Source: Anolis carolinensis (Eukaryota). Taken from it: a stretch of DNA of 64,000 nucleotides. Where the stretch lies: contig NC_085842.1 in NCBI RefSeq assembly GCF_035594765.1, positions 30,046,782-30,110,781 of the forward strand, written 5' to 3'. This document shows, piece by piece, positions 1-55,025 of this stretch; the stretch's first letter is position 1; the number at the start of each line of letters is the position of its first letter. Under the pieces are notes generated by a model. It was not told the DNA's origin and made no database searches. It saw only the letters and a program-made list of their open reading frames with translations. A program made the position numbers and the translations under genes.

Positions 1-39
1 AGTAGTTGCCACTATCATTCCACTTAAATGCCAGCTCAC

Positions 40-159
40 CATGAAAGACAGTGACTGCAATGCATTTTTGGTTCTGTCTTGGGAAACATACATTCACTCT
101 ACCATCACAGTCTTGAGTTGGAGTCTCACGTAGACAGTAATGGCACTTCAGGGCTTGGG
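40..159 (-). CDS. Ly6/uPAR (three-finger, LU-domain) protein, coding exon 2; gene continues beyond left edge
   Basis: Minus strand: polypyrimidine acceptor tctctttttcccctactgcag, then a 120-nt phase1/phase1 exon, then donor G|gtgagc. Translates (A)QALKCHYCLRETPTQDCDGRVNVCFPRQNQKCIAVTVFH, i.e. L-x-C-x2-C-x8-C-x6-C-x7-C, the N-terminal five-Cys half of an LU domain with the typical Ly6 exon phase. Confidence 0.85.
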
Positions 160-865
160 CTGCAGTAGGGGAAAAAGAGATCTGAAACCCAAAAGACCAT
201 GATCACTGGCAAAGGGTTGGTAATTGGCTTCACAGAATTGATTTTGGGCATATCTACACAGCACTTTAACCCAAAGCAGGCCAGAATTGTCTGCATGGCA
301 TTTACAGGGCACACAGAGCTACCTGAAGCTGTGGAGCAGCCCTGTATTTTGGGGCAATGAACAGCCGGGCTGGTTCTGATTTGGAAATGACCCGGCTGTT
401 GACATGGGCCAGTTCTGCCAGTTCTGCAGGAAAACAAGAGTAGCACTGACCTAAATTACATTCCAGTAGTTTATTTGTGTAAGAACAGAGAGGAGAGATG
501 AATGAAGGGAAGGAAAGAGAGAGAAATTCCATCCAAACTTCCCTTGCTTTTGAAATAAAGTACCTCCCAGGTGTTTTTGTGTATATGTATAAGGACAGTG
601 ATGCCACTGTGGTTGGTATCACTCAGCGCAGTAACCATGTTGTCACCACTGTTATCCAGTGCCAAGCCATGCTACAATATTATAGCTGAAATGTTGGAAA
701 ATTTGACAAAATCAACAACTATAAAAATGAGAAGCAATGAAAACAACAGTGTGTGCTTGTAGAACTTGCAGATAAAACCATGTGATTCGAAGCATCATTG
801 GAAAGGGGTAGTAATGACAGCCCTGGCCGGAGAATATGTGCACCAGAATAATAGTAATATAATTA

Positions 866-1184
866 CAGTAGAATCTCACTTATCCAACATTCGCTTATCC
901 AACGTTCTGGATTATCCAACACATTTTTGTAGTCAATGTTTTCAATACATCATGATATTTTGGTGCTAAATTCATAAATACAGTAATTACTACATAGCAT
1001 TACTGAGTATTGAACTACTTTTTCAGTCAAATTTGTTGTATAACATGATGTTTGGGTGCTTAATTTGTAAAATCATAACCTAATTTGACATTTAATAGGC
1101 TTTTCCTTAATCCTTATTATCCAACATATTCGCTTTTCCAACATTCTGCCGGCCCGTTTATGTTGGATAAGTGAGACTCTACTG
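866..1184. mobile_element. Tc1/mariner(pogo)-type MITE
   Basis: TIRs CAGTAGAATCTCACTTATCCAA ... TTGGATAAGTGAGACTCTACTG with TA on both flanks; same family at 8679, 63375 and partial inverted at ~25984-26144. Confidence 0.85.
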
Positions 1185-1487
1185 TATAACTTTATTTTTG
1201 TACCCCGCCTCCATCTCCCCAAGGGGACTCAGAACGGCTTACATGGGGACGAGCCCTAGAAAGTTCAAAAGTAAATTAGGGTAGAATTTTAACCTCATAG
1301 GTATATTGATACAGTATACGTAAACTGGGTTTCTGAATAATGTTTGTGTATTACTGTTTATTTAACAAAGTGATAATTTTATACAAAATAATACATTTCT
1401 GCTAAAATACTGCACAAAAAAATAACAGTAATTTTGACATCACCCAATGTAGTTCACACCTCGCTGTGATCTAAACAGAAGACATAC

Positions 1488-1545
1488 CTGTAAGGACAAA
1501 AGAAAATAAAGCCCAGGATGTGAGGTCGACAACTCTTGTTGGCAT
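1488..1545 (-). CDS. Ly6/uPAR protein, coding exon 1 (signal peptide)
   Basis: ttcaacATG (A at -3), MPTRVVDLTSWALFSFVLT+G, then strong donor CAG|gtatgt. Phase 1 joins exon 159-40 in frame to give MPTRVVDLTSWALFSFVLTAQA|LKC with an A-x-A cleavage motif. Confidence 0.75.
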
Positions 1546-2151
1546 GTTGAATTTTTGTTGCAACAGGCGAAGGGTTGCACCAAAGGCTCCAGGAATGAGG
1601 AAAATCCTTTCCCCCAAACTGGCTCTGAACAATGGGCTGTGGGGGAAAATTGATCCCTCTTCTCTTCTCCCAGCAGACTTGGCCGAGGTCCTGGTGGCCT
1701 TCTTTGGGAGTTGTGGGTATAATCTGGAAGAACCAGACAACTGCAATCTAAATGCCGGGTTTTTAGCTAAACAGTAAACAAACATCTTGTTCTGGAACAC
1801 TGTGCCTACAAGACTTTGTGTGGGCCCCAAGCGGAGTTTGTGGATTGCTTTGACCTACCTCTAGAGAGATGCACTCCTCAAATCCAACAGTCTTAAAATG
1901 TTTTTTTTCCCAAGCAGTAGGTTAGAAATGTGGCACAATCTAATTTTGGAAGGGGATGAGGCAGTCATCCAAACTTCTGGTTGCTGTCTTCTTCTGTTGC
2001 AATTCAATATTTGAAAAATAAGACTTGAACAGATCTGAGAATCCATAACTGTCATATCTCAGGAAAAACCACAACAGAAGGACATTGAATCCAATGCTTG
2101 TGCCAAAAGACCAGGTCTTTCTTGCCCTGATGTATCTGAAGTACCATGTAC

Positions 2152-2390
2152 AAGAATCAAGAATCTTGTTGGAAGAAATCACATGATACTTCTAGTCCAA
2201 CCCCCTGCCACACAGGAAAAGTACCCCTGACAGATGGCCATCCAGCCTCTGTTCAAAAGCCTTCAAGGAAGAGCCTCCTCCACACAATGAGGCAGAGAGT
2301 TCCACTGCTGAACAGCTCTTACGGTCATGAGGTTCTTCCTAATGTTCAGGTGGAATGTCCACTCCTGTAATTTGAACCCATTGCTCCGAG
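2152..2390 (-). mobile_element. CR1 LINE 3' end fragment
   Basis: Reverse complement resembles the 3' end of the CR1 at 19560-19818; boundaries approximate. Confidence 0.7.
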
Positions 2391-2568
2391 ACAGAGAAAT
2401 CCAGTTTCCAGAAGAACCCTGGTTTTAATCTGGTTTTACCGGAGGCATTGTTTAGACACTTTTGGTAAAACTGAGACAGGTCCCAGTTTTTGGGGCAGTC
2501 TGGATGGGCCGTAAGAGGCAAACAGGCTGCTTGGAATTTATATGCCATTGAAATTGAGCCTTAAACAA

Positions 2569-2717
2569 AGGCTCCTTCTACACTGCCATATAATCCAGAT
2601 TACTAAAGCAGATAATCCACATTATCTGCTTTGAACTGGATTATGTGAGTCTACACTGCCATATAATCCAGTTCAAAGTAGATAATCTGGGTTTTATATG
2701 GCAGTGTAGAAGGGGCC
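2569..2717. mobile_element. Palindromic MITE (probably PIF/Harbinger-type)
   Basis: GGCTCCTTCTACACTGCCATATAA ... TTATATGGCAGTGTAGAAGGGGCC inverted termini; related copies near 24108, 48234, 59702 and 62193. Confidence 0.6.
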
Positions 2718-2879
2718 AAAGTTATCTGAATACAAATGGATAGCCATAAACTGCCCATAAAAACGTGCTTTCCTCAGAACATAGTCATGGTAGGATTTCT
2801 TTGCTGCTTAATAACCATAACCATAAATAAACCATTTGATGTCCACCTCCATCAGTAAGTGGGTGAAAAGCACACACTG

Positions 2880-3365
2880 TGAAAATAGCTTTATAAGAAG
2901 CATCAGCCTCCTCCCAGAAAACTTAAATCAAGGAAAAGTTTCATGAGAACCACCACCCCTTTTAATGTTCCTCCAGCAACAGCAACAATATCCCTGTGGG
3001 AAGAAAAATCAGGCAATTCCAACTGTCTGGCCCCCTGCGAGGGTCTTCTCCGAGGGAAAACCAAGACTGGCCAACTTGGAAGTCCCTGGATAGATGCAGA
3101 AGTGGAGTTGGCAGATCAAAAGACAAACTGGCAAAAGAATCCTCCACTTTGTGTGACTGTGGAGCAGAACAAATAACTCAGCATATGTATGCTTGCCTCA
3201 CAATGCCCTGCCTCATGCACAAAGAAGAACTGCTTAAAGCTACAGAAAATACAGTTGCTGTTTCCCGTTTTTGGTCTAAAATTCTTTAGCTGCTTGTGCT
3301 CCCTTTATTTTATCAGTTTTATACTTATTTATTTCTGCAATGCTTTTGACACAAAATAAATAAAT
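2880..3365 (+). mobile_element. Vingi/ingi-like LINE 3' fragment
   Basis: ORF 2996-3289 contains WPTWKSLDRCRSGVGRSK...CDCGAEQITQHMYAC (C-terminal CCHC knuckle of LINE ORF2), followed by an (AAAT)n tail. Confidence 0.65.
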
Positions 3366-3624
3366 CCCTTGTTCCCACAGATAAAAATTGGGCTTACAGA
3401 AAAAGAAGACAACTTCATGATTACTAAATGTAATAAGGATTCTGGGGTACTAAACAGTCTAATCCAGCATATTTAAAACACAGAGTTTGCTCCTGATTTG
3501 ACTGTAGTGCATGAGTGTCGGTCTCATGGAAAATAAGATCTGACTGGGACAGATGGTGGGTTTTTGTGGTGCTCTTCTTCTTCCATAGGCATATGGACAA
3601 TCCTCTAGCTTCCATGTCAAAGGT

Positions 3625-3898
3625 TTTTTTTTGTGTGTGTCAGGAGTGACTTGAGAAACTGCAAGTCACTTCTGGCGTGAGAGAATTGGCTATCTGCAAA
3701 GATGTTGCCCAGGGGACACCTGGATGTTTTGATGTTTTTACCATCCTTGTGGGAGGCTTCTCTCATGTCCCCGCATGGAGCTAAAGCTGATAGATAGCTG
3801 TGCTCTCCCCGGGTTGGATTCGAATCTGGCGGTGTTCAGGTCAGCAACCCTGCCTTCAAGTCACAAGTCTTTAACCCACTACGCCATCGGGGACTCCT
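3625..3898 (-). mobile_element. tRNA-derived SINE (lizard SINE2-type)
   Basis: Reverse complement of the element at 34272-34521; B-box-like ATTCGAATCC, A-rich tail. Confidence 0.7.
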
Positions 3899-4056
3899 AG
3901 TCAAAGGTGTAATGTTGGGGGAGGCAGTATAGCCCCTAATCCCAAACAGTTACCTACTCCTGGGGCAAGGAATGGGCTTTATCTTTAAAGATGTTGAGCT
4001 CTAACTTCCAAAGTCCATCAACCGGATACTTTATCACATAAAGGCAATATATTATT

Positions 4057-4555
4057 TATTTATTTGCAGTATTTATATTCCGCCCTTCTCACACTCAAGG
4101 GGACTCTGGGCGGATCACAATGCACATATACATGGCAAACATTCAATGCCATTAGACATACAACATATATAGACAGACACATATAGACACAGACACAGAG
4201 GCAATTTAACATTCCAGCTTCTGGCTTCATAGGGGTATGCACGATTCCGGGGGAGCTGCCGCTTCACTGTCCACTTGTGACACCGAGTCCTTGATGGAGT
4301 ACTTCCTCATTCTTCCACACGCTGCTGGAGATTTTATGGTGTCATAAATTAGTTAAATTAGCCTTCCCACATAAAGCAGTACCTACATTTCCTACTCAAC
4401 AAATGCCACTGTCTTTTGGCTGCATAGGTCAACAGCAAGCTAGACTATTAGTGGTTGGGGAGTTTACTCCGACCTGGGTTGGCTCAAACTCATAACCTCT
4501 CAGTCAGTAGTGATTTCTTGCAGCTGGCTACTAGCCAGCAGTGCCACAGTCCGGT
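4057..4555 (-). mobile_element. SINE with tRNA-like head and L2-like tail
   Basis: Homologous to 7690-8147; 3' end resembles the L2-type tail (gagtcccct..gagaagggcgg..aataaataa on minus strand). Confidence 0.6.
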
Positions 4556-5339
4556 CCTAGCATTGAATATGGATCGTCGCCTTTGTCAAAGGTACCTATC
4601 AAATAACATTGTGCACAGTCAATTTCTAATCTTCCTCATCGTGACAAACCTGCAACCTGCTATTGAATAGAAAACCACCAATAGCCACACATTGCACATA
4701 TTACCACTATGTATTTACCTGTTGTGGTGAGGTCGTTCTAGTTATGAAGTAACCTCAAAGAGAAAGATTCTCCTCCTCTCCCACTCTTCCCTCCCCTTCC
4801 GAGGCAGTAATAAAACTTTAGGGTTTTTTTTTTTTAATAACCCTGACTGGAATTGTGAACTTGCTTTAATATATACTTTATAAAAATTACAGAGCAGCAG
4901 AAATGGGGGAGGATAGAGTTAACAAGGGTATATGGAAATATAACTGAGGGACTACAAATGGGCTGATTGACACAATTGCATGAATACAGAGATGTCTGAT
5001 AGCAAAGGTATTCATCCCAGTATGTTTCTGCCATTGGTGGTCATGCAAATAGCGGCTTCATGCAATAGTTATTGGACAACTTATCTGATGTATGCTGCAA
5101 AGCTCACAGCAGATTCATGGCAACCTGACATGGAAAACGCCAGTTGCTCCCATACATGGCTGCTTGTGCTTTCATTTTGTGCAGTCATTCATGGCTCTGT
5201 GCTGGCCCCTAGTGGAGCAACTGACAGGGGACAAGTATTACTTATTATGGCATCTGGGCGATTCACTGCTTCTATATAATGATAAATACATTTCATTTAT
5301 TTTCAAGCTGCATGGACACCTTGAAAACCACACTGGAGC

Positions 5340-7184: not shown

Positions 7185-7520
7185 CCTAATGGCAGAGAAG
7201 GTATACCTAATGGCAGAGAAGGTACACCTAGTGGCAGAGAAGGTATGCCTAATGGCAGAGAAGGTACACCTAGTGGCAGAGAAGGTACACCTACAGGCAG
7301 AGAAGGTACACTTAATGGCAGAGAAGGTACACCTAGTGGCAGAGAAGGTACACCTAATGGCAGAGAAGGTACACCTAGTGGCAGAGAAGGTACACCTAGT
7401 GGCAGAGAAAGTACACCTAGTGGCAGAGAAGGTACACCTAGTGGCAGAGAAAATACACCTAGTGGCAGAGACGGTACACTTAGTGGCAGAGAAGGTACAC
7501 CTAGTGGCAGAGAAGGTACA
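7185..7520. repeat. 21-bp minisatellite, 16 units (CCTAGTGGCAGAGAAGGTACA)
   Basis: 336 bp = 16 x 21; explains the repetitive ORFs GTPSGRE/VAEKVHL/LPLGVPS. Confidence 0.95.
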
Positions 7521-8147: not shown

Positions 8148-8249
8148 AAATTTTTCCCAAATTAGCATAACCATTTTATTCAGTTTCAGTGAATTCTGAG
8201 TTGTTTTTGCAAGGGGCAGTTCTGCTGTTACTGTAAAGATTAACAAAAA

Positions 8250-8448
8250 TGTATTTACTTCCTAAAAATGATCTGAAGCAAGATCTATCTGCACTGAAGG
8301 ATATGGCAAGACACTTACTGGCTATGAGAAATATTTATGTGCAATACAACATGAAGGGGAAGATATTCAGAAGAGCGGAAACTGTCCACAGTCTTCGTTG
8401 AGCAAGACAATTAATCGGCAGGCCCTTTGTGGGCACAAGCAGGTAATT
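8250..8448 (+). promoter_or_regulatory. Putative promoter/non-coding exon 1 (type A) of cholinesterase-like gene 1
   Basis: Non-repeat block conserved with 50620-50817 upstream of gene 4; both end in donor AAGCAG|gtaa (exon end 8442). Confidence 0.5.
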
Positions 8449-8678
8449 CCTGATTTACTTCCATTAATTCCTGATTTGCAGTTAGGTGTGATAGCAGTTA
8501 TGCATTACAGCAGAAGCCACAGCCTAATACCCAATGTTTGCAAGGTTTATTGTCTACTTTCAGGCTCAGATTCACTAATCTGCACATCTGGGTATGAAAG
8601 CCCTCCTGTCTTTGTTAAGAGGGAGAGAGGGAGGGAAGATACTATATATCTGAAAATAGATCTATCTGAATAGATATA

Positions 8679-9486: not shown

Positions 9487-10976
9487 ATGCTTGGTCTTGC
9501 CTTTTCCATATCATGCTCTCTCTTCATCCTGTTTTCACTGGCCTCCAATGCTGCTTCCAAAGATGACCTTGCGGTGGACACCAGCAGTGGCCCTGTCAAG
9601 GGTAAAACTCTCACCGTTGGCTCTGGCTCTGTGAGAGCTTATCTTGGCATCCCCTATGCTGAGCCTCCCTTGGGGAAACTGCGATTCCAGAAGCCTCTTC
9701 CACATCAACCATGGAATCAAATCTTTGAGGCCACCGACTTTGGCAATGCCTGTCCTCAATTACTTCTAACTCAAACACCTGAGGCAAAATTGTGGAATCC
9801 TAATAGGCCCCTGTCAGAAGATTGTCTCTTCCTCAACATCTGGGTGCCCCATCCACAGCCCTCTGTACCAATTCCCATTCTTGTCTGGATACACGGAGGG
9901 GGCTTTGTTGCAGGTACAAGTTCTCTGGATTTGTACAATGGAGCTTCTTTAGCTGCAACTGAGAATGTCATTGTGGCCTCCATGAATTACCGCCTGGGGG
10001 CTCTGGGCTTTCTTTCCTTGCCACCAGCCATCCCAGGAAACATGGGTCTGTGGGACCAACACCTGGCCCTGACCTGGATCAAGCAGAATGCAGCTGCCTT
10101 TGGTGGAGATCCAAGGCGGGTGACGATTTTTGGTCATAGTGCTGGAGCAGCCTTTGTTGGCTTCCATCTCCTCTCATCCAAAAGTGAGTCCCTTTTTGCC
10201 CAAGCTGTGCTTCAGAGTGGAGCCCCCAATGCCATCTGGGGTTGGGTGAGTCCTAAGAAGGCCAAGAATAACTCCTTTGAGCTTAGCCAGCTGCTGGGAT
10301 GTGGAGAAGGCAATGAAAATGAAATTGTGAGTTGCCTTCAGAAAAAAGATGCAATGGAATTTCCTCAGTACGAAACATCTCTGTTTCAGAAAAATAATTA
10401 TATTTTGGAATTCATCTTTGCACCAACAACAGATGGGGAATTTTTGACTGATGATCCTCAGAGTCTTTTAAACTCTCAGCTTGTGCAGACCAAACCTATT
10501 CTCACTGGTGTCACCTCAGATGAAGCGGCTTCCATGCTGGCTTTTATTTTTCCTGGAAACAATCACAGCCTAATCACTCGGGAACAATTTCTAGAAACAT
10601 TAAGAAATACAGTACGAAATGCAACTGAAGAAGATATTCAGGCTGTGGCCCTGAAGTACACTGAAGAAAGTCATGGCCTGGCAAAGTACCGTTCAGCCTT
10701 GGTGCAATCCTTGGGTGATTATTTCTTTGTATGTCCTGCAGCCGAAATTGCTGACCAGATGAGAAAAGCTGGGAGTCCTGTGTATGTTTATCTTTTTACA
10801 CATCACACCTCTGGCACTGTCTGGCCTGAGTGGGCAAAGGCAACCCATGGAGCTGAAGTCATTTATCTGTTTGGAAGCTTTAAGGCAGCATTGGAGGCCA
10901 ACAAAACACACACAGAGGCGGATGCAGCGCTCAGCCAGAGAATAATGCGATATTGGGCAGAGTTCGCCAGAACTGG
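9487..10976 (+). CDS. Cholinesterase-like gene 1, main coding exon (catalytic triad intact)
   Basis: Acceptor ttccag|9479, ATG 9487, signal peptide, LGIPYAEPP, WNPN..SEDCLFLN, HGGGF, GHSAG (Ser AGT 10138-10140), SDEA, THGAE (His 10846-10848), ends FARTG with GG|gtaagg phase 2 as in BCHE-type genes. Confidence 0.95.
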
Positions 10977-11146
10977 GTAAGGCATTTTTCTTGCTCATTC
11001 TTCTCTTCTTTATTGATAAAATCAGTACAATCTGAGTAACAGAATACACATTAATTTCTTCTCTGCATTTTCTATCCCGCATTACATATAATCAGAAACA
11101 GTGCTTGGTACCTTGTAATAGGAATAACTAATGAATTTTTAAGTTA

Positions 11147-14100
11147 CAGGTTGAGCATCCCTTCCCTGGAATTCTGAAATATTCCATCAGCCAAAATTGT
11201 CCACATTGGTGCCTAAGATTGCTGATCAATGCCAGATCCATCAATGGTAAGACCGCTGCCATTCAGGACTTGATCCTGGATTAGGGGGCGGATCTGGCTT
11301 GCATTACCGAGACCTGGCTGGACGAGCTGGGGGGAGTAAATCTCACTCAGCTGTGCCCACCAGGCCTCGGAGTGCATCAGCAGGCTAGGCTGGGGGGGCG
11401 CGGAGGAGGGGTCGCAGTTGTCTATCGGCAATCCATCGCCGTGGTCAGATGCTCTGTTCCGCAGGCATCTGGGTTTGAGTGCGTCCACCTGAGGGTGGGG
11501 AACCGTGATAGCGTGGGGTTTCTGCTGGTGTACCGCCCACCCCGCGACCCAGTAGTTTCCCTGACTGAGCTAGCAGAGGTGGTCTCCAATTTGGCCTTGG
11601 TCTCCCAGCGCCTGGTGGTGCTGGGAGACTTTAACATTCATGCTGAGACCCCCTTGACTGGTGCAGCTCAGGATTTCATGGCCGCCATGACGACCATGGG
11701 GCTATCACAAATTATAGCTGGTCCTACCCATCAGGCTGGACACACACTCGACCTAGTTTTTGTGGCGGACAGTGGAATGATCAGAGTGGAAGAACAAAAC
11801 ACCCTTCCTGTGTCATGGTCTGATAATTATCTGGTCAGTTTTAGACTTTCGGCGACCCTAAACCTCCGCAGGGGTGAAGGACAAATTAAGATCGTCCGCC
11901 CCAGGAGACTGATGGATCCGGAGGGATTCCTGAGGAATCTTGGGGTCCTTCCTGCCATGGAGCCTGGTGATCCTGTCGACGTCCTGGTCGATCTCTATAA
12001 CAGGGAAGTGACCAGGGCGATAGATACGATCGCTCCCGAACGCCCCATCACATTGTGTCATGACAAGCCGTCTCCCTGGTTCACCGGGGAGCTGGCTGTG
12101 ATGAAGCATATGAGGAGGGGGCTAGAGCGCACTTGGAGGAGTTCTCGGGGTGTGTCCGACCGAGCACGGGCTACAGCCTTTCTTAGGGCGTATACCATGG
12201 CTATACGGGCAGCCAAGGAGTCCTATATGACTACCCGTATAGCGTCTGCAGCAAATAGATCATCGGAGTTGTTTCGGGTCGTTGGGGAACTCCTTCAGCC
12301 ACCTGTGGTGGAGGAGACTTTTGACGACCCAGCAACTCGGTGTCGCGATTTCGCACACCATTTTGCAGACAAAGTCACTCAGATACACCTTGAGCTCGAC
12401 TCCAATTTCACCACAGTGCCAGGGGAGGTGATTGAGGCATCTGCTTGTCCGATTTTGTGGGATTCTTTTAGGCTTGTTCTTCCTGAGACCGTGGTGGAGG
12501 TCCTTGGGGCTGTGAGGGCAGCCACGTCGGCTCTGGACCCTTGCCCGTCTTGGCTAATTAAATCGACCAGGGAGGGGCTGGTTGATTGGTTTGTGTTGAT
12601 CGTTAATGCATCGTTGGAGCAGGGGGGTTTTCCATCTCATCTGAAACAAGCTGTGGTTCGTCCACTCCTTAAAAAGGTTTCCCTTGACTCCACGGTGCTG
12701 AACAATTTCAGACCAATCTCCAACCTCCCTTTCTTGGGTAAGGTGCTGGAGCGGGTGGTTGCCTCCCAGCTCCAGGGCTTTCTAGATGACATCAACTACC
12801 TAGATCAGTCACAGTCTGGTTTCAGGCCTGGTCACAGCACCGAGACAGCCTTGGTCGCCTTGGTGGATGACCTCCGTAGAGAGCTGGACAGGGGGAGTGT
12901 GACCCTGTTGGTTCTCTTGGACATCTCAGCGGCTTTCGATACCATTGATCATGGTATCCTTCTGGGACGACTCTCTGGGATGGGTCTCGGGGGCACGGTT
13001 TTGTCGTGGCTCCGATCCTTCCTGGAGGGTCGATCCCAGATGGTGAAGCTGGGAGACGCCTGCTCGGACCCCTGGCCTTTGAGCTGTGGGGTCCCGCAAG
13101 GCTCTATTCTGTCTCCCATGCTCTTTAACATCTACATGAAACCGCTGGGAGAGGTCATCCGGAGTTTTGGAGTTGGGTGTCACCTCTATGCAGATGACGC
13201 ACAACTCTACGACTCCTTTCCACCTAATTCCAAGGAGGCCTCTCGGGTGCTGGACGAGTGCCTGGCCGCTGTGTCTATCTGGATGAGGAGGAACAAGCTG
13301 AAGATCAATCCCGACAAGACAGAGGTCCTCCTGGTCGATCATAATCCTGACCGGGGTATAGGGTGGCAACCTGTGCTGGACAGGGTTACACTCCCCCTGA
13401 AGCCACAGGTCCGCAGTCTGGGAGTCCTCTTGGATTCATCGCTTATGCTCGAGGCTCAGGCGTCAGCGGTGTCTGGGAGGGCCTTTGTACAATTGAGACT
13501 CGTGCGCCAACTGCGACCGTACCTCGCGAAGGCTGATCTGGCCGGGGTGGTCCATGCCTTGGTCACCTCCAGACTGGACTACTGTAATGCGCTCTACGTG
13601 GGGCTGCCCTTGAAAACGGCTCGGAAGTTCCAACTGGTCCAACGAGCGGCAGCCAGGATGTTAACTGGGGCCCCTTACAGAGAGAGGTCAACCCTCCTGT
13701 TCAAGGAGCTCCACTGGCTGCCATTTACTTTCCGAGCCCAATTTAAGGTGCAGGTGCTTACCTACAAAGCCCTGAACGGTTTGGGACCATCCTACCTCCG
13801 TGACCGCATCTCCGTCTACGAACCCACGCGTTCACTTCGGTCATCTGGAGAGGCCCTGCTCGTGATCCCGCCTGCATCGCAAGCGCGGTTGGTGGGGACA
13901 CGAGACAGGGCCTTCTCTGTGGTGGCCCCCCGACTCTGGAACACCCTCCCCAAGGATCTCAGACAGGCCCCTACATTGGCAGTCTTCAGAAAGAACTTGA
14001 AGACCTGGCTGTTCCAATGTGCCTTCCCAGATTAATAGGAAATCTCCAACTCCAAGTCCCATAAGCACTTTATTAGAACTAGATCGTATGTCGCACTCTG

Positions 14101-15117: not shown

Positions 15118-16355
15118 ATTTGGATTGCTGGGAAGTGGAGTCCAAGAACATCTGAAGGGCTGCTCAATACCATCTTATATTATATTCCAAAATGCTTTTG
15201 ATTCAGATTTTGATTCCAGAAAGTCACAGGTAGAAGCAATTTGGGCAGCCAAAACACTCAGCTTTTGTTAACTGTTGTGCAAAAGGAAGCAGAAAACAAT
15301 GTCAGACTTTGTGTGACATGTTGTGTAACCCAGTGCATGATCAGAACCAAGTAAAGTAGATTATATCCATTTTGGCACAATGCCATGCACATTGAGAAAT
15401 ACAGAGAAAGGAGGAAGAGGAAAAAGATAGATCTAAACATAGGATCAGAAAAAAAAGTTACAAAACACCGCATTACTTAGAATATGTCATGTTACCTAAT
15501 GGCATCTCAGTGACTCTTAGGACCTCATCACATTGAGGTGACAGTGGGGGAATTTACAGGAGCAGGAAAACTACTCCTGGTTCCTGATAAAGGTGAAGAA
15601 AATAGTTAGAATAGGAGAGGTTGAAAGGGCTTGGTGGTTGCGGTGGGAATGAAAATTCAGCCAAGAAGAAAAAGAGGGAAAGAAAGGACACAGATGTTGT
15701 GGTACTAAAGACTTTCTAAAAAGTGCAGCTGGTACTGGTTGAGTAAAGTTTGGAGTGGGAATAATACTAGGATGGGAGTAGGATGTTGGCTTTCAACTCA
15801 GCTGCAGCTGGATATCTTCATTATATGCCCCCCCCCCCAATGTTTCACTGATGCAAACAGAGATACGGGTACTTGAACACACAAACCAGGAGAGACTGCA
15901 GCAGTTTGCCTTTGCAGGTGCCTACTGGAAAGGGTGAGGTGTTGCCCACTATGGAGATAATATAGCACAAACTCCTTTTGCATCTTGAACTTAATTTGCA
16001 ATACTTGAAGTAAGCTGAGAAGAAAAGGAAATCGTGGGAGAAGAAGAGGGAAACTGGGTCTTTTTAAAATTTCTGAAAAAGTGAGGTGGCCAAAGTGTAA
16101 TTGGGACAGTCCCTTGTCAAATTATGGAAAACATAAAAGGACTTTGCTGGATCATGTCTTTTTGAGCACTTCGTTAGTTTTGAGAGAGAAAAGTAGCTTG
16201 GTCCCTTTTTTCTGCACCCCGAAGAATTCTATTCATGTTCCTTGTTCAAACCTAAAAGAACCTCCAAACCTTGTGATCTCTTCTACCATTTTTCCTGAGT
16301 TTACATGCAACATTACAGCCTGCTGGTTATAAACATATTGTTTTCTCCTCAATAG

Positions 16356-16501
16356 GAATCCCACAGGATCAGAGAAGAAAGAAGTGGAGTGGCTGCCTTA
16401 TAACCCTACACAGCAGAACTTCTTCCATCTTAGCACTGAGCAAGCTCAGGTTATGCCGGTATCGCCTGCTCGACACTGTGGCCTTTTTGCTACAAATCGA
16501 A
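16356..16501 (+). CDS. Cholinesterase-like gene 1, exon 3 (read-through frame open to 16584)
   Basis: Acceptor caatag|G; NPTGSEKKEVEWLPYNPTQQNFFHLSTEQAQVMPVSPARHCGLFATNR; donor A|gtgagg; homologous to exon 3 of genes 3/4 (9 nt shorter). Confidence 0.9.
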
Positions 16502-17539: not shown

Positions 17540-18533
17540 ATGCTTAAATGCTAATAGGGACAGAGAAAAGGCAGAACTACTCAACAGCTTCTTTGCTTCA
17601 GTCTTCTCTCAAAAGGTTATCCATGTTCAACTTGGAGAGAATGGAAAAGAGGATTAAGTAAAAGAAATGGACCACAGAATAGTTAAAGGGGCAATACAGG
17701 AATATCTGGCTAATCTAAATGAATTCAAGATGAACAATATTCAAGGTGTTAAAAGAACCAGTAGAATAAATTTCAGAACCAATTGCAACCATCTTTGAGA
17801 ATCTCTAGAGAACAGGAGAAGTTCCAACAAATTGGAAGAATGTAAATATTATCCACATCTTCAAAAAGGGAGGGGAAAGGACCCAATTACTGCTTACTGA
17901 GCCTGGCACCAATACCACAAATGGTTCTGAAGCACTTCATTAAACAGACCATCTGTAAACACTTAGAAAAAATGCCAGATTCACAAAAAGTCAACATGGG
18001 TTTCTCAAAAACAAATAATGCCAGATTAACCTTTTCAGCTTTTGACAGAGTTTAAACAGCCTTTATTGGCATACAGCAACCAAATCACAACACAGGTATA
18101 TAAAACAAGAGGAAGTCACAGATAAAAAGAAAACATACTTAAAAGTTACTAATCTCAAGGATAAAATTTGCAACAGTCTCACAAAAGAATTCATCAGAGT
18201 TACAATCTTGGTAGATGAAAGGAATGTTGCAGATGTGGCCTATCTTGATTTCAGTAAAGTCTTTGACAAAATTCCCCATGACATTCTCACAAAGAAGCTA
18301 ATAAAATGTGGGGCAGACAATGCTACTGCGCGGTGAATTGGGAATTGATTGACTGGCTGAACCCCAAAAGTGCTCCCCAATGGCTCTTATTTATTCATTC
18401 TGGATGACAGAATGTCTGGAGGACAGAATAGAAGGCATGCTTATTAAATTTTCAGATGGCTCCAAATTGGGGAGTAGTTAATAGTTAATACCTCAGAGGA
18501 CAGGATCAGAATCCAAAATGATTTTATCAGATT
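17540..18533 (+). mobile_element. Old degenerate CR1 LINE fragment
   Basis: Decayed RT-coding sequence (gatttcagtaaagtctttgacaaaattccccatg = DFSKVFDKIPH) with stops and indels. Confidence 0.75.
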
Positions 18534-19818
18534 TTAGAAACAAATGCGGTCATTGCTAATAGTCAACACGGATTTACCAAAAACAAGTCATGCCAGACTA
18601 ATCTGATCTCTTTTTTCGATAGAGTTACGAGTTGGGTCGATACAGGGAATGCTGTGGATGTAGCCTACCTGGATTTCAGTAAGGCCTTCGACAAAGTCCC
18701 CCACGACCTTCTGGCAAATAAACTAGTAAAATGTGGGCTAGACAAAACTACGGTTAGGTGGATCTGTAATTGGCTAAGCGAACGAACCCAAAGGGTGCTC
18801 ACCAATGCGTCGTCTTCATCATGGAAAGAAGTGACAAGTGGAGTGCCGCAGGGCTCCGTCCTGGGCCCGGTTCTGTTCAACATCTTTATTAACGACTTAG
18901 ACGAAGGGTTAGAAGGCACGATCATCAAGTTTGCAGACGACACAAAACTGGGAGGGATAGCTAACACTCCAGAAGACAGGAGCAGAATTCAAAACGATCT
19001 TGACAGACTAGAGAGATGGGCCAAAACTAACAAAATGAAGTTCAACAGGGACAAATGCAAGATACTTCACTTCGGCAGAAAAAATGCAAATCAAAGATAC
19101 AGAATGGGGGACGCCTGGCTTGACAGCAGTGTGTGCGAAAAAGACCTTGGAGTCCTAGTGGACAACAAGTTAAACATGAGCCAACAATGTGATGCGGCTG
19201 CTAAAAAAGCCAACGGGATTCTGGCCTGCATCAATAGGGGAATAGCGTCTAGATCCAGGGAAGTCATGCTCCCTCTCTATTCTGCCTTGGTCAGACCACA
19301 CCTGGAATACTGCGTCCAATTCTGGGCACCACAGTTGAAGGGAGATGTTGACAAGCTGGAAAGCGTCCAGAGGAGGGTGACTAAAATGATTAAGGGTCTG
19401 GAGAACAAGCCCTATGAGGAGTGGCTTAAAGAGCTTGGCATGTTTAGCCTGCAGAAGAGAAGGCTGAGAGGAGACATGATAGCCATGTACAAATACGTGA
19501 AGGGAAGTCATAGGGAGGAGGGAGCAAGCTTGTTTTCTGCTGCCCTGCAGACTAGGACACGGAACAATGGCTTCAAACTACAGGAAAGGAGATTCCACCT
19601 GAACATCAGGAAGAACTTCCTGACTATGAGAGCTGTTTGACAGTGGAACTCTCTCCCCCGGGCTGTGGTGGAGGCTCCTTCCTTGGAGGCTTTTAAGCAG
19701 AGGCTGGATGGCCATCTGTCGGGGGTGCTTTGAATGCGATTTCCTGCTTCTTGGCAGGGGGTTGGACTGGATGGCCCATGAGGTCTCTTCCAACTCTACT
19801 ATTCTATGATTCTATGAT
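18534..19818 (+). mobile_element. Young 5'-truncated CR1 LINE (RT C-terminal half)
   Basis: 328-aa [54 protein letters not shown]; (ATTCTATG)n tail. Confidence 0.92.
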
Positions 19819-22283: not shown

Positions 22284-23734
22284 ATGCCTCGCCTCCTCCT
22301 TTCTGTTTTTGGTCTTTTATTCCTCTCACTGATTTCTGCCTCTGAAGATGATACCGTGGTGGTGACCAACAGTGGCTCCATTCAAGGCAAGAGAATTCTG
22401 GCTGGTCCTGGCTCTGTGACTGCCTATCTTGGCATCCCTTATGCTAAGCCCCCGCTAGGGAAACTCCGGTTCCAGAAGCCTCTTCCACATCCACCCTGGA
22501 CCCACGTGTTGGAGACCACCAGGTTTGGCAATTCTTGTCCCCAAGCAAATGCTTCTGGACTCTTTGATATAGACATATGGGTTGCCAATACACCACTTTC
22601 AGAAGACTGTCTTTTCCTCAATATCTGGGTACCCCACCCAAAGCCCTCCACCCCAGCACCTATCCTTGTATGGATCCAAGGTATGGGTTATGTCACTGGC
22701 ACTGCTTCCTTGGAGATCTATAATGGAGCCACCTTAGCTGCCACAGAGAATGTCATTGTGGCCTCCATGAATTACCGCTTGGGAGCTCTGGGTTTTCTTT
22801 ATATGCCACCACATGCCCCAGGAAATGTTGGCTTATGGGACCAACACCTGGCTCTGAAATGGCTGAAGGAGAACGCAGCTGTCTTTGGTGGTAACCCAGC
22901 TCAATTGACTCTTGTTGGCCACGGTGCTGGAGCAGCCATGGTGGGGTTCCACCTTCTCTCACCTGTAAGCCAACCACTTTTTTCTCATGCTGTGCTCCAG
23001 GGTGGCGTTCCCAATGCCATCTGGCCCTGGAAGGATACCCAGAAAGCAAAGCTAGATGCAGAGATGGTAAGCCAAGAAGTGGGGTGTCCTCTAGATGCTG
23101 ACACGGTAAGCTGTCTACAGAGAATAGAAATTGGGGACAAAAAATTTTCTCAACTGACTGCTATCAATTCCTTGACAGTAGATGGAGAATTCCTGACAGA
23201 TGAGCCAAGAAAACTCCTAAAGGATGCAAATTTTCAGGGTAAATCAATTATCACAGGCATCTTAGCTGATGAAGGATCTACATTTGTATTGTATATGTAT
23301 CCTAACACCAAATCCAATGGTGGGATAGTGACCTGGGAACAGCTTTATCAAGGGGTGATGGGAACAATGGCAAATGGAACAAATGAAGCTGTTGCTCAGG
23401 TTGTAGCACGGAAGTTCAGTGAAAACTATCATGGGCCAGAGCAGTACCGTTTGGCCTTTGCTCAATATTTTAGAGATTACTTCTTTGTGTGCTCTTTGGA
23501 TGAATTTGCTGCAAAGATCCAAGAAGCTGGGAGGCCAGTCTATGTTTATTCCTTCGATCACCGTTCATCTGGTTCCACCTGGCCTGAATGGGTAAAGACG
23601 CCCTATGGGTCTGAGGTGCCTTACCTGTTTGGAAGCTTCAAAGCTGCTTTGCCAACAAGCCAGCCAGTCACAGAGGCAGAAAAAGCACTGAGCCGTAGAG
23701 TGATGCGATATTGGGCCGAGTTTGCCAGAAGTGG
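22284..23734 (+). CDS. Cholinesterase-like gene 2, main coding exon; predicted catalytically inactive
   Basis: Acceptor ctacag|22279, ATG 22284, signal peptide, intact frame. Motifs altered: IQGMGY (oxyanion hole), GHGAG (Ser->Gly), QGG, PYGSE (His->Tyr); Glu (ADEG) kept. Ends FARSG GG|gtaagt. Confidence 0.93.
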
Positions 23735-24743
23735 GTAAGTCATCAAATATTTTGGATCATAAGATCATGTTTGATATTGATGAAATTGACGAGGATAAAA
23801 AAAATTCAATCTATGCTCCATCTTTTCTCATAAACTCGCAAATTGGCTAACAAGTGATTTAAAAACACATTTCAAGTAGCCAATTACAAATATCTAAAAC
23901 CAAAAAGACAACATGTTCAATGTCAAAAGTATCATTAACTAGAAATCAAAATGCTAATATAAAATGAAAGCAATACAAACAAGTAGCCATAAAAAGTATA
24001 ATAAATACTTGCTAATTTCCCATTGGGTGAATAGATAGATTTTGGGGCCCAAATGATTAAGATATAGAAGAGAGCAATAGGAGAAGGCAATCAAGGTGCT
24101 CTAACTTAGGGCCCTTCCAGACAGGCCCTATATCCCAGGATCTGATTCTAGGTTTTCTGCTTTAAACTGGATTATATGAGCCTCACAAAATCAGCACACA
24201 GAAACCGCTTGACACTTGATTACATGAATTCCACGGCTCTTCTCGTGAGGTCTCTACCTGAATGTAGCATTGCTCTCACAACTATTGTTATCAACATGAA
24301 CCACTGTTTTAAAACCCCAAAACCCCTTGCATGCGATAATTTCTTTTGCACCTGGCCTCCTTATCTCTGAGCCAGCGGGAGAAGCGAGTCTTTAATTGCT
24401 GGTCCTATCAGCCCTGTTGACATACCTCTAATCTCTCTGACATCAACAAACATTCATCTTCCCCAATTTCCTCTGACTGCGCTTCTGGCAGGTACCCATG
24501 GAAATGGCCTTCACTATTTTCCTCCTGGGAACCAACAGGAGATTCTAAGACATTTCTGCCAGGAGATTCAACATTTCCCTCCCATCATCCCCAGCTGAAT
24601 TTGATTTCAACATTGGCTGAATTTGAAAGTCTGTTTCCTAAGCACCGAATAACCAAAAAAATGCAAGTGTGTGTATGAGAAAATGTGTTAATCACAAAGA
24701 ATTATCTTTCTCTTTAAACCATGATTTCTTTTTGCATTAAAAG

Positions 24744-35528: not shown

Positions 35529-37003
35529 ATGCTTGGTCTTGCCTCTTCCATATTATGCTCCTTCTTCATCCTGTTTTCACTGACCTCCAATGCTGCCTCC
35601 AAAGATGACCTTGTAGTGAACACCAGCAGTGGTCCTATCAATGGCAAAGCTCTCACCATTGGCTCTGGCTCTGTGAGAGCTTATCTTGGCATCCCCTATG
35701 CTGAGCCCCCCTTGGGGAAACTGCGATTCCAGAAGCCTCTTCCACATAAGCCATGGAGTCAAATCTTTGAGGCCACTAACTTTGGCAATGCCTGTCTTCA
35801 GTCAGTTCTTTCTCAAACACCTGAGGCAAAATTGTGGAATCCCAATAGGCCCCTGTCAGAAGATTGTCTCTTTCTCAACATCTGGGTGCCCCATCCACAG
35901 CCCTCTGTACCAATTCCCATTCTTGTCTGGATACACGGAGGGGGCTTTGTTGCAGGTACAAGTTCCCTGGATTTGTACAATGGGGCTTCCTTAGCTGCGA
36001 CTGAGAATGTCATTGTGGCCTCCATGAATTACCGCCTGGGGGCTCTGGGCTTTCTTTCGTTGCCACCAGCTGTCCCAGGAAACATGGGTCTGTGGGACCA
36101 ACACCTGGCCCTGACCTGGATCAAGCAGAATGCAGCTGCCTTCGGTGGAGATCCAAAGCGGGTGACGATTTTTGGCCACAGTGCTGGAGCAGCCTCTGTT
36201 GGCTTCCATCTCCTTTCACCTAAAAGTGAGCCCCTTTTTGCCCAAGCTGTGCTTCAGAGTGGAGCTATCTACGCTTCGGCAAGTCCCGGGAAGGCCAAGA
36301 ATAACTCCCTTGAATTTAGCCAGCTGTTAGGATGTGGAGAAGGCAATGAAAATGAAATTGTGAGCTGTCTTCAGGACAAAAATGCAGTGGAATTTCCTCA
36401 GCATGAAGCATCTCTGAGTAAGAAAAAACCTCTGTATCCTGTATTTGAACCAACAGCCGATGGGGAATTTTTGACTGATGATCCTCAGAGTCTTTTAGAC
36501 TCTCAGCATGTTCAGATCAAACCAGTTCTCACTGGTGTCACCTCAGATGAAGCAGCTCCTATCGTGGATTTAATTATTCTTGGAAGCAATTATAGCCAAA
36601 TCACTATGGAAATTTTTTTAACTGTATTAAGGTATCTAGTGCGAAACACAACTGAAGAAGATATTCAAGCTGTGGCCCTGAAATACAGTGAAGAGAGTCA
36701 TGGCCCAGCAAAGTACCGTTCAGGCTTGGTGCAGTCTTTGGGTGATTATTTCTTTGTATGTCCTGTAGCCAAATTTGCTGGCCAGATTAGAAATGTTGGG
36801 AGTCCTGTGTATGTTTACCTTTTTACACATCACACCTCTGGCACTGTCTGGCCTGAGTGGGTAGGGGTGCCTCATGGAGCGGAACTCATTTATCTATTTG
36901 GAAACTTTGAGGCAGCATTTCAGGCCAACAAAACACATACAGAAGCGGAAGAAGCACTCAGCCGTAGGATAATGCAATATTGGGCAGAGTTTGCCAGAAC
37001 TGG
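35529..37003 (+). CDS. Cholinesterase-like gene 3, main coding exon (triad intact)
   Basis: Acceptor ttccag|35521, ATG 35529; HGGGF, GHSAG, SDEA, PHGAE; 3-codon deletion in QSGA---IYAS; ends FARTG GG|gtaagg. Confidence 0.95.
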
Positions 37004-37132
37004 GTAAGGCATTTCCCCTGCTTTATTCAGTAAAACAATTCATTCTGAGATGGCAACACTTTTTTTTTACGCCCCTCTGAGTACCCTTGGGAAGTTAGGG
37101 CAGAATACAAATAAATAAATAAATAAATAAAT

Positions 37133-53148: not shown

Positions 53149-54638
53149 ATGCTTGGTCTTGCCTCTTCCATATCATGCTTCTTCTTCATCCTGTTTTCAC
53201 TGACCTCCAATACTGCCTCCAAAGATGACCTTGTGGTGGACACCAGCAGTGGCCCTGTCAAGGGCAAATCTCTCACCGTTGGCTCTGGCTCTGTGAGAGC
53301 TTATCTTGGCATCCCCTATGCTGAGCCTCCCTTGGGGAGACTGCGATTCCAGAAGCCTCTTCCACATCAACCATGGAGTCAAATCTTTGAGGCCACTGAC
53401 TTTGGAAATGCCTGTCCTCAGTCAGTTCTTTCTCAAACACCTGAGGCAAAAATGGTGAATCCTAATAGGCCCCTGTCAGAAGATTGCCTCTTTCTCAACA
53501 TCTGGGTGCCTCATCCGCAACCCTCTGTACCAATTCCCATCCTTGTCTGGATACACGGAGGGGGATTTATTTCAGGTACAAGTTCCCTGGACTTGTACAA
53601 TGGGTCTTCCTTAGCTGTGACTCAGAATGTCATTGTGGCCTCCATGAATTACCGCCTGGGGGCTCTGGGCTTCCTTTCCTTGCCACCAGCTGTCCCAGGA
53701 AACATGGGTCTGTGGGACCAACACCTAGCCCTGACCTGGATCAGGCAGAATGCAGCTGCCTTTGGTGGAGATCCAAAGCGAGTGATAATTTTTGGTCAGA
53801 GTTCTGGAGCAGCCTCTGTGGGTCTTCACCTCCTCTCACCCAAAAGTGAGTCCCTTTTTGCCCAAGCTGTGCTTCAGAGTGGCGCTCCCAATGCTATTTG
53901 GGCTTGGGCAAGTCCTGAGCAGGCCAAGAATAAATCCCTTGAGCTTAGCCAACTTCTGGGATGTGGAGAAGGTAATGAAAATGAGATAGTAAACTGTCTT
54001 CGGGGGAAAAATGCAATGGAATTTCCTCCGTATGAAACATTGCTGGTACTGAAAAGTAAGTTTCTTATGTGTCTCCCCTTCATACCAACAACAGATGGGG
54101 AATTTTTGACTGATGATCCCCAGAGTCTTTTAGACTCCCAGCATGTGCAGACCAAGCCAATTCTGACTGGTGTCAACTCAGATGAAGCAGCTTCCTTGTT
54201 GATTTTTATTTTTCCTGGAAGCAATCACAGCCTAATCAATCATGAACAATTTCTAAAAGTATTAAGAAGTGCATTGCAAAATGCAACTGAAGAAGAAATT
54301 CAGGCCGTGGCTCTCAAGTACAGTGAAGAGAGTCATGGGCCAGCAAAGTACCGTTCAGCCTTGGTGCAATCCTTGGGTGATTATTTATTTGTATGCCCTG
54401 CAACTGAATTTGCTGCCAAGATCAGAAAAGCTGGGAGTCCTGTGTATGTTTACTATTTTACGCATCACACTTCTGGCACTGTCTGGCCTGAGTGGGCAAA
54501 CGCAACCCATGGAGCTGAACTCATTTATGTGTTTGGAAGTTTTAAGGCAGCATTGGAGGCCAACAAAACCTACACAGAGGCCGAGGCAGCACTTAGCCGT
54601 AGGATAATGCAATATTGGGCGGAGTTCGCCAGAACTGG
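53149..54638 (+). CDS. Cholinesterase-like gene 4, main coding exon (triad intact, choline-site Trp lost)
   Basis: Acceptor ttccag|53141, ATG 53149; KMVNPN (W->V), HGGGF, GQSSG, SDEA, THGAE; ends FARTG GG|gtaaga. Confidence 0.95.
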
Positions 54639-55025
54639 GTAAGACATTTGACTTTCTCATTATCCTGTTTTATTCAGAAAGTTAGTTCAATCTGACTAGC
54701 AGAATGCACATTATTTTGTTTTATTTATTTATTTACTTCACTTGTATACTGCTTTTATCACCCCGGATAGGGGACTCAAAGTGGTTCCCAAACATATTAT
54801 GGCAAAATTCATTGCCTACACAACAATAATAAAATAAACTATTAATTGAATCATAAAAATACAATAACATTAACATTAAAACATAGAGTTAAAATATATT
54901 AATTTAAACATCAAAATCACATAATCTAAAAATCAAAGTCAAGGGTCATTCCAATAACAATTTCTATTTTCTTCTCTGACATTATTTCCTGCATAGGATA
55001 TCTTAAGAAACAGAATTTTAATTTA

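Follow-up and report, generated by a model that had tools for sequence, protein, structure and literature searches.

The Ly6/uPAR (LU) domain is described, in the passages of PMC4839075 drawn on here, as a unit of about 80 residues with ten cysteines. Among the characterized members of this family, the GPI-anchored proteins (Lynx1, CD59 and LY6G6) carry a C-terminal GPI signal, which the gene analysed here lacks, whereas PATE, SLURP1/2 and C9orf57 share with it three exons, ten cysteines, the absence of a GPI tail and an arrangement in arrays of fast-changing copies, but are found in another chromosomal neighbourhood. LY6G5B and LY6G5C of the MHC class III region likewise encode a single LU domain and lie on the same chromosome, about 3 Mb apart from our gene; unlike them, however, it occupies a class I interval rather than the position between ABHD16A and CSNK2B, is multi-copy and has a short C-terminus. 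Snake three-finger toxins, including the fasciculins, resemble it in putative fold family, three-exon plan and predicted secretion, but our gene is located in the MHC, whereas the main Ly6 cluster is on a different chromosome (C4). According to the sections of PMC10421932 consulted, these toxins arose in a TOP1MT-linked Ly6 cluster from a membrane-anchored ancestor; 3FTx-like transcripts have been reported from several non-venom tissues in a study whose consulted sections discuss only ACHE itself (Hargreaves et al., 10.1101/006031). The binding of fasciculin to acetylcholinesterase depends on Trp286, Tyr72 and Tyr124, as stated in the part of PMC12564739 used here.

We analysed a 64,000-nucleotide stretch of Anolis carolinensis DNA (G000:C2:30046782-30110781; hereafter the window), in which two exons of a Ly6 gene stand beside a series of cholinesterase-like genes. 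On balance, we lean towards reading the whole as an intact gene for a secreted Ly6 ligand, situated in a copy-variable MHC array with an esterase neighbour, its layout having come about by inversion. Taken alone, the gene adds one more predicted secreted protein to the Ly6 family. The better lead is the locus: ~300 kb of the MHC class I framework region in the lizard are taken up by about 11 loci of the three-finger kind together with 11 cholinesterase-like genes. The locus was not found described in the literature searched: the search, whose coverage lay mostly outside subscription journals, brought up nothing published on a cluster of cholinesterase-like genes in squamates or on the present array.

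Structure and annotation of the Ly6 gene

The Ly6 gene of the window is a real, intact three-exon gene and a new member of a known family. Its two minus-strand exons were found as the original prediction had described them, with canonical splice sites and matching phase. The coding part of exon 1 (1488-1545, minus strand) starts with an ATG at 1545, comprises 19 codons plus one base, encodes a predicted signal peptide and is followed by a GTATG donor at 1487; the same exon and donor are found in three paralogs and in the RefSeq paralog P0163. Upstream of it, positions 1546-1675 (minus strand) are the likely 5' untranslated region, contigs of run X2 (guessed to be RNA) extending to 1675 (L045 7762-7857). 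Intron 1 (160-1487, minus strand; GT-AG, phase 1) contains a dispersed repeat and ends in the acceptor ...CTGCAG at 160. Exon 2 (40-159, minus strand; 120 nt, phase 1 at both ends) encodes the end of the signal peptide (A-Q-A) and the first half of the LU domain, with five cysteines spaced C-x2-C-x8-C-x6-C-x7-C, and its donor, GTGAG at 39, opens intron 2, of which positions 1-39 (minus strand) lie in the window and which measures 5.5 kb in all.

A third exon containing CC-x4-CN had been predicted to the left of the window, and this exon was located 5.5 kb away, at G000:C2:30041272-30041130 (L014:4349-4491, minus strand). It has a CTGCAG acceptor in phase 1 and five cysteines including the CC-x4-CN motif, and it ends with a stop codon six residues after the CN. 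The three exons together encode 106 residues with ten cysteines (84 residues in the mature form), and the early stop leaves no GPI tail, in agreement with the predicted secreted form. The signal peptide was judged by eye from its hydrophobic core and A-Q-A end and is clearer in the Podarcis ortholog; after its predicted cleavage, the 106-residue product would leave the cell as a three-finger protein with ten cysteines. A GPI-anchored, Lynx1-like modulator was ruled out by the lack of a hydrophobic C-terminal tail in exon 3, and a PLA2-inhibitor-like protein by the single domain and the lack of a match to Pfam PLA2_inh.

The exon layout is not due to chance, because both P0163 and the Podarcis ortholog P0125 have the same layout, the latter with 51% and 41% identity to exons 2 and 3. 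A profile search of proteins gave two matches among four candidates, P0163 and P0125, and the window copy was not among them. With exon 3 by itself as query, a protein search gave no match even though P0163 is present in the collection, a false negative due to the word filter. The gene had been called hidden, which holds for the window copy, as it appears to be unannotated in the protein collection, but not for its paralog: P0163 is RefSeq XP_062825638.1, a protein named 'LY6G5B-like' that is encoded at 30137-30144 kb, shows the same two exon joins and is ~81% identical to the window copy.

Domain assignment and nearest relatives

Membership in the Ly6/uPAR family, proposed from the first two exons, was borne out by profile comparison. 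When the exons were scanned apart, exon 2 matched positions 1-36 of Pfam UPAR_LY6 (E 5.6e-5; 24.0 bits, a half domain set against a cut-off of 24.8) and exon 3 positions 43-81 (E 1.9e-4; 22.3 bits), so that the two cover complementary halves of the domain, and the full-length paralog and ortholog both pass the same cut-off with 37.3 and 36.3 bits. Furthermore, the gene has the ten cysteines, the L-x-C-x-x-C motif at the N-terminal end and CC-x4-CN at the C-terminal end, and the three exons with the signal peptide in exon 1 that characterize LU genes. P0163 also passes Pfam Toxin_TOLIP, weakly (23.3 versus 21.2 bits).

An AlphaFold2 model of the Podarcis ortholog is beta-rich, with a pLDDT of 62.9. 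Foldseek returned no match for this model at E <= 0.001, its weak matches being three-finger folds, and a PDB sequence search with the ortholog gave five matches, none better than E 0.2. The Atlas structure matches of the ortholog were clusters of C9orf57, PATE14-like and LY6G5C proteins (TM 0.83-0.86); C9orf57 and PATE14-like proteins reached 0.83, and LY6G5C, among the top three, reached 0.86 by query. Atlas feature matches ranged from 0.85 to 0.89, all under the 0.9 mark.

When 14 other Ly6 loci of the genome were compared, the best match was an untailed gene of the LY6G region at C2:27.13 Mb, with a low score of 23.5 bits; by contrast, GPI tails are visible in the genes at C2:27.26-27.32 Mb. 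It is plausible from these comparisons that the array described below derives from an LY6G5-like gene of MHC class III, but its position is not the class III position of LY6G5, and the similarity to the C2:27.13 Mb gene, while the best, is weak. The genome's strongest Ly6 cluster is on C4, and we take this to be the TOP1MT-linked cluster. The array does not have the pre-3FTX position either, being flanked by TRIM, ZNF, RPP21 and PPP1R18 genes.

A Ly6 array in the MHC class I framework region

In 464 kb scanned we found 10 LU second exons and 10 third exons, which amount to about 11 loci of five sequence types, six to the left of the window's esterases and five to the right; first exons were mapped for the window gene's type only, and one second exon was found without a partner. 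All 10 third exons found stop 3-14 residues after the last Cys-Asn/Ser. The region also contains eleven cholinesterase-like genes in two blocks, five on the plus strand (four of them in the window) and six on the minus strand. Four non-retroelement genes, identified from 115 scanned frames, flank the region: to the left, genes for a C2H2 zinc-finger and a TRIM protein, and to the right, Rpr2 (RPP21) and phostensin (PPP1R18). Between the zinc-finger and TRIM genes there is also a frame of 339 codons (L043:2-1018, plus strand), which includes a hydrophobic stretch and matches nothing in Pfam.

In the MHC map of A. sagrei, as given in Supplementary Table 9 of PMC9679377, ten gene ids spanning ~380 kb separate PPP1R18 and RPP21 from RNF39. 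The flanks found here match this PPP1R18-RPP21-RNF39 interval, which places the array in the MHC class I framework region. Neither 'cholinesterase' nor 'BCHE' occurs in the searched text and tables of PMC9679377, two supplements included, and six A. sagrei gene ids from the interval are not in its spreadsheet. Inside this framework interval, the array of about 11 loci gains and loses copies.

Inverted duplication and the fate of the copies

The Ly6 block at 29.96-30.05 Mb is repeated in inverted orientation at 30.13-30.18 Mb with 92-97% identity. In the window, the upstream DNA at 1676-4599 has a counterpart of ~95% identity in the inverted duplicate (30131.3-30126.5 kb). The homology stops near 4600, which is likely to be an edge of the rearrangement. 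Duplication of a haplotype in the assembly was rejected as improbable on the assembled sequence, in which the arms differ by 3-8% and by insertions.

There are four copies of the window gene's type, two in each arm. In one of them exon 2 has a base missing at its start, and another has lost exon 2 through a 259-bp deletion, which leaves one intact copy per arm, the window copy being the intact one in its own. Between the two intact copies, dN is 0.107 and dS 0.118 (20 and 6 changes), a comparison that does not demonstrate purifying selection. The copy without exon 2 lies in the duplicate arm (L017:485-4150; G000:C2:30131266-30134930); both of its introns are in phase 1, so that an exon 1-3 splice would be in frame and yield a half-domain peptide. 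Exon 1 of this copy is closer to the next paralog than to its true twin, which suggests gene conversion. An LU second exon at L010:9509-9631 (G000:C2:30006290-30006412), has neither a third exon that we could find nor a twin in the other arm, and has a full-length relative in Phrynocephalus (P0127).

Expression of the window copy is likely. Exon 3 and its 3' flank are present in 18 of 24 run rows (seven studies), 14 of which are guessed to be RNA and none of which is recorded as such; four runs from four studies were mapped to the gene, the RNA status of all of them being only a guess. Contigs of X2, X3 and X4, from three studies, cover all three exons and the 3' flank of the third. Those of X2 agree with the letters specific to the window copy in exon 1 and at the end of exon 3, and at the latter the X2 and X4 contigs show no differences across nine sites that distinguish the closest duplicate. 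The exon 2 contigs shown (X3 and X4) have 6-7 differences and fully match neither assembled paralog; that of X3, with 7 differences, is probably a paralog allele. The X3 contig spans L045 6221-6344, that is, the limits of exon 2 plus one and three letters shared with the introns, and then continues into 16 unlike letters. The X2 contig with the window copy's exon 1 breaks at the donor and continues with 28 unlike letters, and its one extra matching letter fits exon 3 and not exon 2; skipping of exon 2 in this contig is possible. The joint from 1488 to 159 is not among the joints listed, where repeat-derived rows dominate. X2, X3 and X4 each have zero depth in four repeat-poor intron or upstream bins, gaps in contigs that prove nothing, and X9 covers all 30 bins.

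Several of these observations would also be expected if the window copy were a redundant duplicate, weakly or wrongly spliced and heading for loss: it is missing from the protein collection, two of the four copies of its type are already broken, dN/dS between the two intact ones is near 0.9, and one contig may skip exon 2. We nevertheless hold such decay to be very improbable, since the reading frame, the splice sites and all ten cysteines are intact despite 20 replacement changes relative to the other intact copy, the window copy is the only intact one of its type in its arm, and contigs with its own letters cover its exons.

The cholinesterase-like genes

Four of the esterase genes have their large coding exon on the plus strand of the window. 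A1 (9487-10980) has an intact triad and a last coding exon near 16342-16500; a block at 8153-8678 (plus strand), which is conserved upstream of three related esterase genes, is likely to be the A1 promoter or a non-coding first exon. In A2 (22284-23738), the catalytic serine is replaced by glycine and the catalytic histidine by tyrosine, so that A2 is predicted to be inactive and to be the catalytically dead member that had been claimed for the window. A3 (35529-37007) and A4 (53149-54642) have intact triads, with valine at the Trp86-equivalent position in A4. The same region contains two reverse-transcriptase frames, retroelement-like by eye, one of 916 codons in the last intron of A1 (11285-14035) and one of 372 codons between A1 and A2 (18522-19640), and, between the Ly6 gene and A1, a minisatellite of 16 copies of a 21-bp unit (7185-7520).

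Like ACHE and BCHE, these genes belong to the COesterase family, with one large coding exon and, in eight of eleven, a Ser-Glu-His triad, the serine having been lost in A2, B3 and B4. However, they form a separate clade with 38-45% identity to the genome's ACHE-like and BCHE-like genes (on C3 and C6), and no tetramerising tail was seen in four annotated Anolis proteins. Residues, including Asp74, Glu202 and those of the triad, are numbered as in human acetylcholinesterase. Glu202, which precedes the catalytic serine, is replaced by histidine or glutamine in all eleven esterases, and Trp86 is kept in seven. Of the residues of the fasciculin site, Trp286, Tyr72 and Asp74 are kept in none of the eleven and Tyr124 in one, while the genome's own acetylcholinesterase retains Asp74, Tyr124 and Trp286. 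The replacement of Glu202 renders doubtful the 'cholinergic' character that had been attributed to the locus. The loss of the fasciculin site makes a fasciculin-type pairing unlikely, and the esterases may act on a substrate other than a choline ester.

The lineage (G000:C2:30056-30267 kb; window 9487-54642) has 402 database matches at E <= 1e-100, of which 120 were listed, all of them squamate where named. Homologs of the clade are found in geckos, skinks, lacertids, anguimorphs, iguanians and snakes. Among the 120 listed, 99 have Ser-Glu-His, eight have aspartate for the glutamate, 11 are without the serine and two are truncated, and the gorge residues vary. B3 and B4 have asparagine in place of the catalytic serine, as do eight of the 120 listed homologs, which come from Anolis, Sceloporus, Pogona, Elgaria and Gekko kuhli; this distribution suggests that the Asn-for-Ser esterases (B3 and B4 at G000:C2:30218121-30237721; L025-L027) are a long-kept lineage of pseudo-enzymes. 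The locus marks out a squamate-wide esterase family that includes a dead lineage retained by several families of lizards, and this third cholinesterase-like lineage is probably of more interest than the single Ly6 gene.

Probable linkage in other squamates and proposed origin of the head-to-head layout

A profile built from eight second exons retrieved nine proteins at E <= 0.001, of which eight were looked up; none of the nine was named as a snake protein, and P0129 is a kinesin-like false match. P0122 and P0123 are RefSeq 'PIP-1-like' models from Hemicordylus and elephant; each contains two consecutive second exons and is probably a fusion of adjacent genes. Synteny was read from accession order rather than coordinates, which was informative in two of the four named squamate species with array matches, Phrynocephalus being left out. 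In Podarcis lilfordi, the Ly6 ortholog CAI5767874.1 is followed on the same contig by the esterases CAI5767875/76, 79 and 82. In the gecko Paroedura picta, the Ly6 proteins XP_077180765 and 0767 stand between the esterases XP_077180758-63 and 0786-87 on one contig; they are of a different type, with 26% identity to P0125. The match in Hemicordylus lies on the chromosome of the esterases, but its accession number is not adjacent. Linkage across squamates, expected under the original prediction, is therefore likely for Podarcis and the gecko and not seen as adjacency in Hemicordylus. It is probably old, dating from the split of the geckos or from early squamates; since the gene order of the MHC framework is conserved anyway, such an old linkage is the default.

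The Ly6 gene and the first esterase are indeed head-to-head, as had been noted with an estimated spacing of ~7-8 kb: the start codons of the Ly6 gene (1545) and of A1 (9487) are 7,942 bp apart. The proposal that the two form a divergently transcribed, co-regulated pair did not fare as well. Genes paired on a bidirectional promoter have start sites within about 1 kb of each other and a conserved orientation. Judged from contig ends and the conserved block rather than from mapped start sites, those of the present pair are kilobases apart, the Ly6 contigs reaching 1675 and the conserved block upstream of the esterase beginning at 8153. Moreover, the equivalent Ly6 genes of the duplicate arm come after esterase A5 and share its strand.

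In a quick, midpoint-rooted tree without bootstrap, calculated from 41 of about 130 esterase sequences, A1 falls into an Anolis-only clade with A3, A4, B1 and B2 (SH-aLRT 100), while the Podarcis esterase CAI5767875.1 groups with Anolis A5 (SH-aLRT 97) and the next Podarcis esterase with A2. The head-to-head geometry is thus probably not old and most likely results from the recent inverted duplication, with A1 belonging to an expansion confined to Anolis. We propose that ancestrally the Ly6 gene stood next to A5 in tandem, on the same strand, and that inversion of the A1-A5 block and duplication of the Ly6 array would then have split the A1/B1 family and brought A1 head-to-head with the window's Ly6 gene. 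A layout produced by inversion and duplication does not by itself point to a promoter in common or to a pairing of enzyme and inhibitor.

Possible relations between the two families

Under the reading that we favour, the Ly6 protein would act alone, as a small extracellular ligand whose finger tips contact a cell-surface receptor, in the manner of secreted SLURP and PATE proteins; such a role is likely by analogy with the family as portrayed in the relevant passages of PMC4839075. The interval has also seen the cholinesterase-like family expand, and this family has probably stood beside the Ly6 array since early squamates. There is no sign so far of the two protein types working together, but a shared function would also fit the old linkage of two secreted families.

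One form of shared function would be a module under a common regulatory domain: a single gland or epithelium, be it of the skin, the cloaca, the reproductive tract or the mouth, would release both families to serve in chemical signalling or in defence of the surface, with no binding of one to the other. In its favour, members of both families have signal peptides and no visible anchor, both are multi-copy and variable, the order of accessions has them side by side in Podarcis and intermingled in the gecko, and the esterase gorge varies across the 120 listed homologs as would be expected for diverse small substrates. We consider such co-secretion possible but rather unlikely: the conserved framework order would keep the families together in any case, and the Anolis rearrangement has altered both orientation and neighbours.

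More specific is the idea of direct binding, in which the esterases next door would be inhibited, stabilised or carried by the three-finger proteins, much as fasciculin acts on acetylcholinesterase or GPIHBP1 on lipoprotein lipase, with the dead esterases serving as decoys. Fasciculin on acetylcholinesterase provides a precedent for a three-finger protein on an alpha/beta-hydrolase (PMC12564739, in the part consulted), and GPIHBP1-lipase structures were among the weak fold matches of the ortholog, none at E <= 0.001. The probably old adjacency, the three of 11 Anolis esterases without a catalytic serine and the Ser-to-Asn change in eight of the 120 listed homologs point the same way. However, the fasciculin-like partner that had been envisaged is not supported, given the missing peripheral-site residues and the gene's position outside the chromosome-4 Ly6 cluster; the former counts against the fasciculin mode only and not against other interfaces. 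There is also no one-to-one pairing, five Ly6 types facing 11 esterases in separate blocks. A complex prediction without controls, for Podarcis P0125 (residues 21-104) with its neighbour esterase P0149 (25-542), gave scores of 0.02 and 0.01 against a mark of 0.34 and is evidence neither way. All in all, we regard direct binding as highly doubtful.

A broader view, in our estimation distinctly unlikely, would see in the squamate MHC class I region an old secretory module of two families, in which an expanded third cholinesterase lineage with active and dead members is accompanied by a co-secreted three-finger array that binds or tunes the esterases through an interface other than that of fasciculin. 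If this were true, the MHC-linked module could yield individual chemical signals or surface defence, and the toxin-esterase pairing of snake venoms would have in it a counterpart of endogenous kind. Were the families found to be co-secreted or to bind each other, MHC-linked chemical signalling in reptiles would become directly testable. The array is an independent squamate set of three-finger proteins with predicted secretion and bears on the reading of 'toxin-like' transcripts from non-venomous lizards; the paper on three-finger toxin origin (PMC10421932), in the sections consulted, deals with another cluster.

Further untailed LU third exons similar to those of the array were seen on chromosome 1 (L063-L064; G000:C1:27.35-27.37 Mb), possibly marking another cluster of secreted Ly6 genes.
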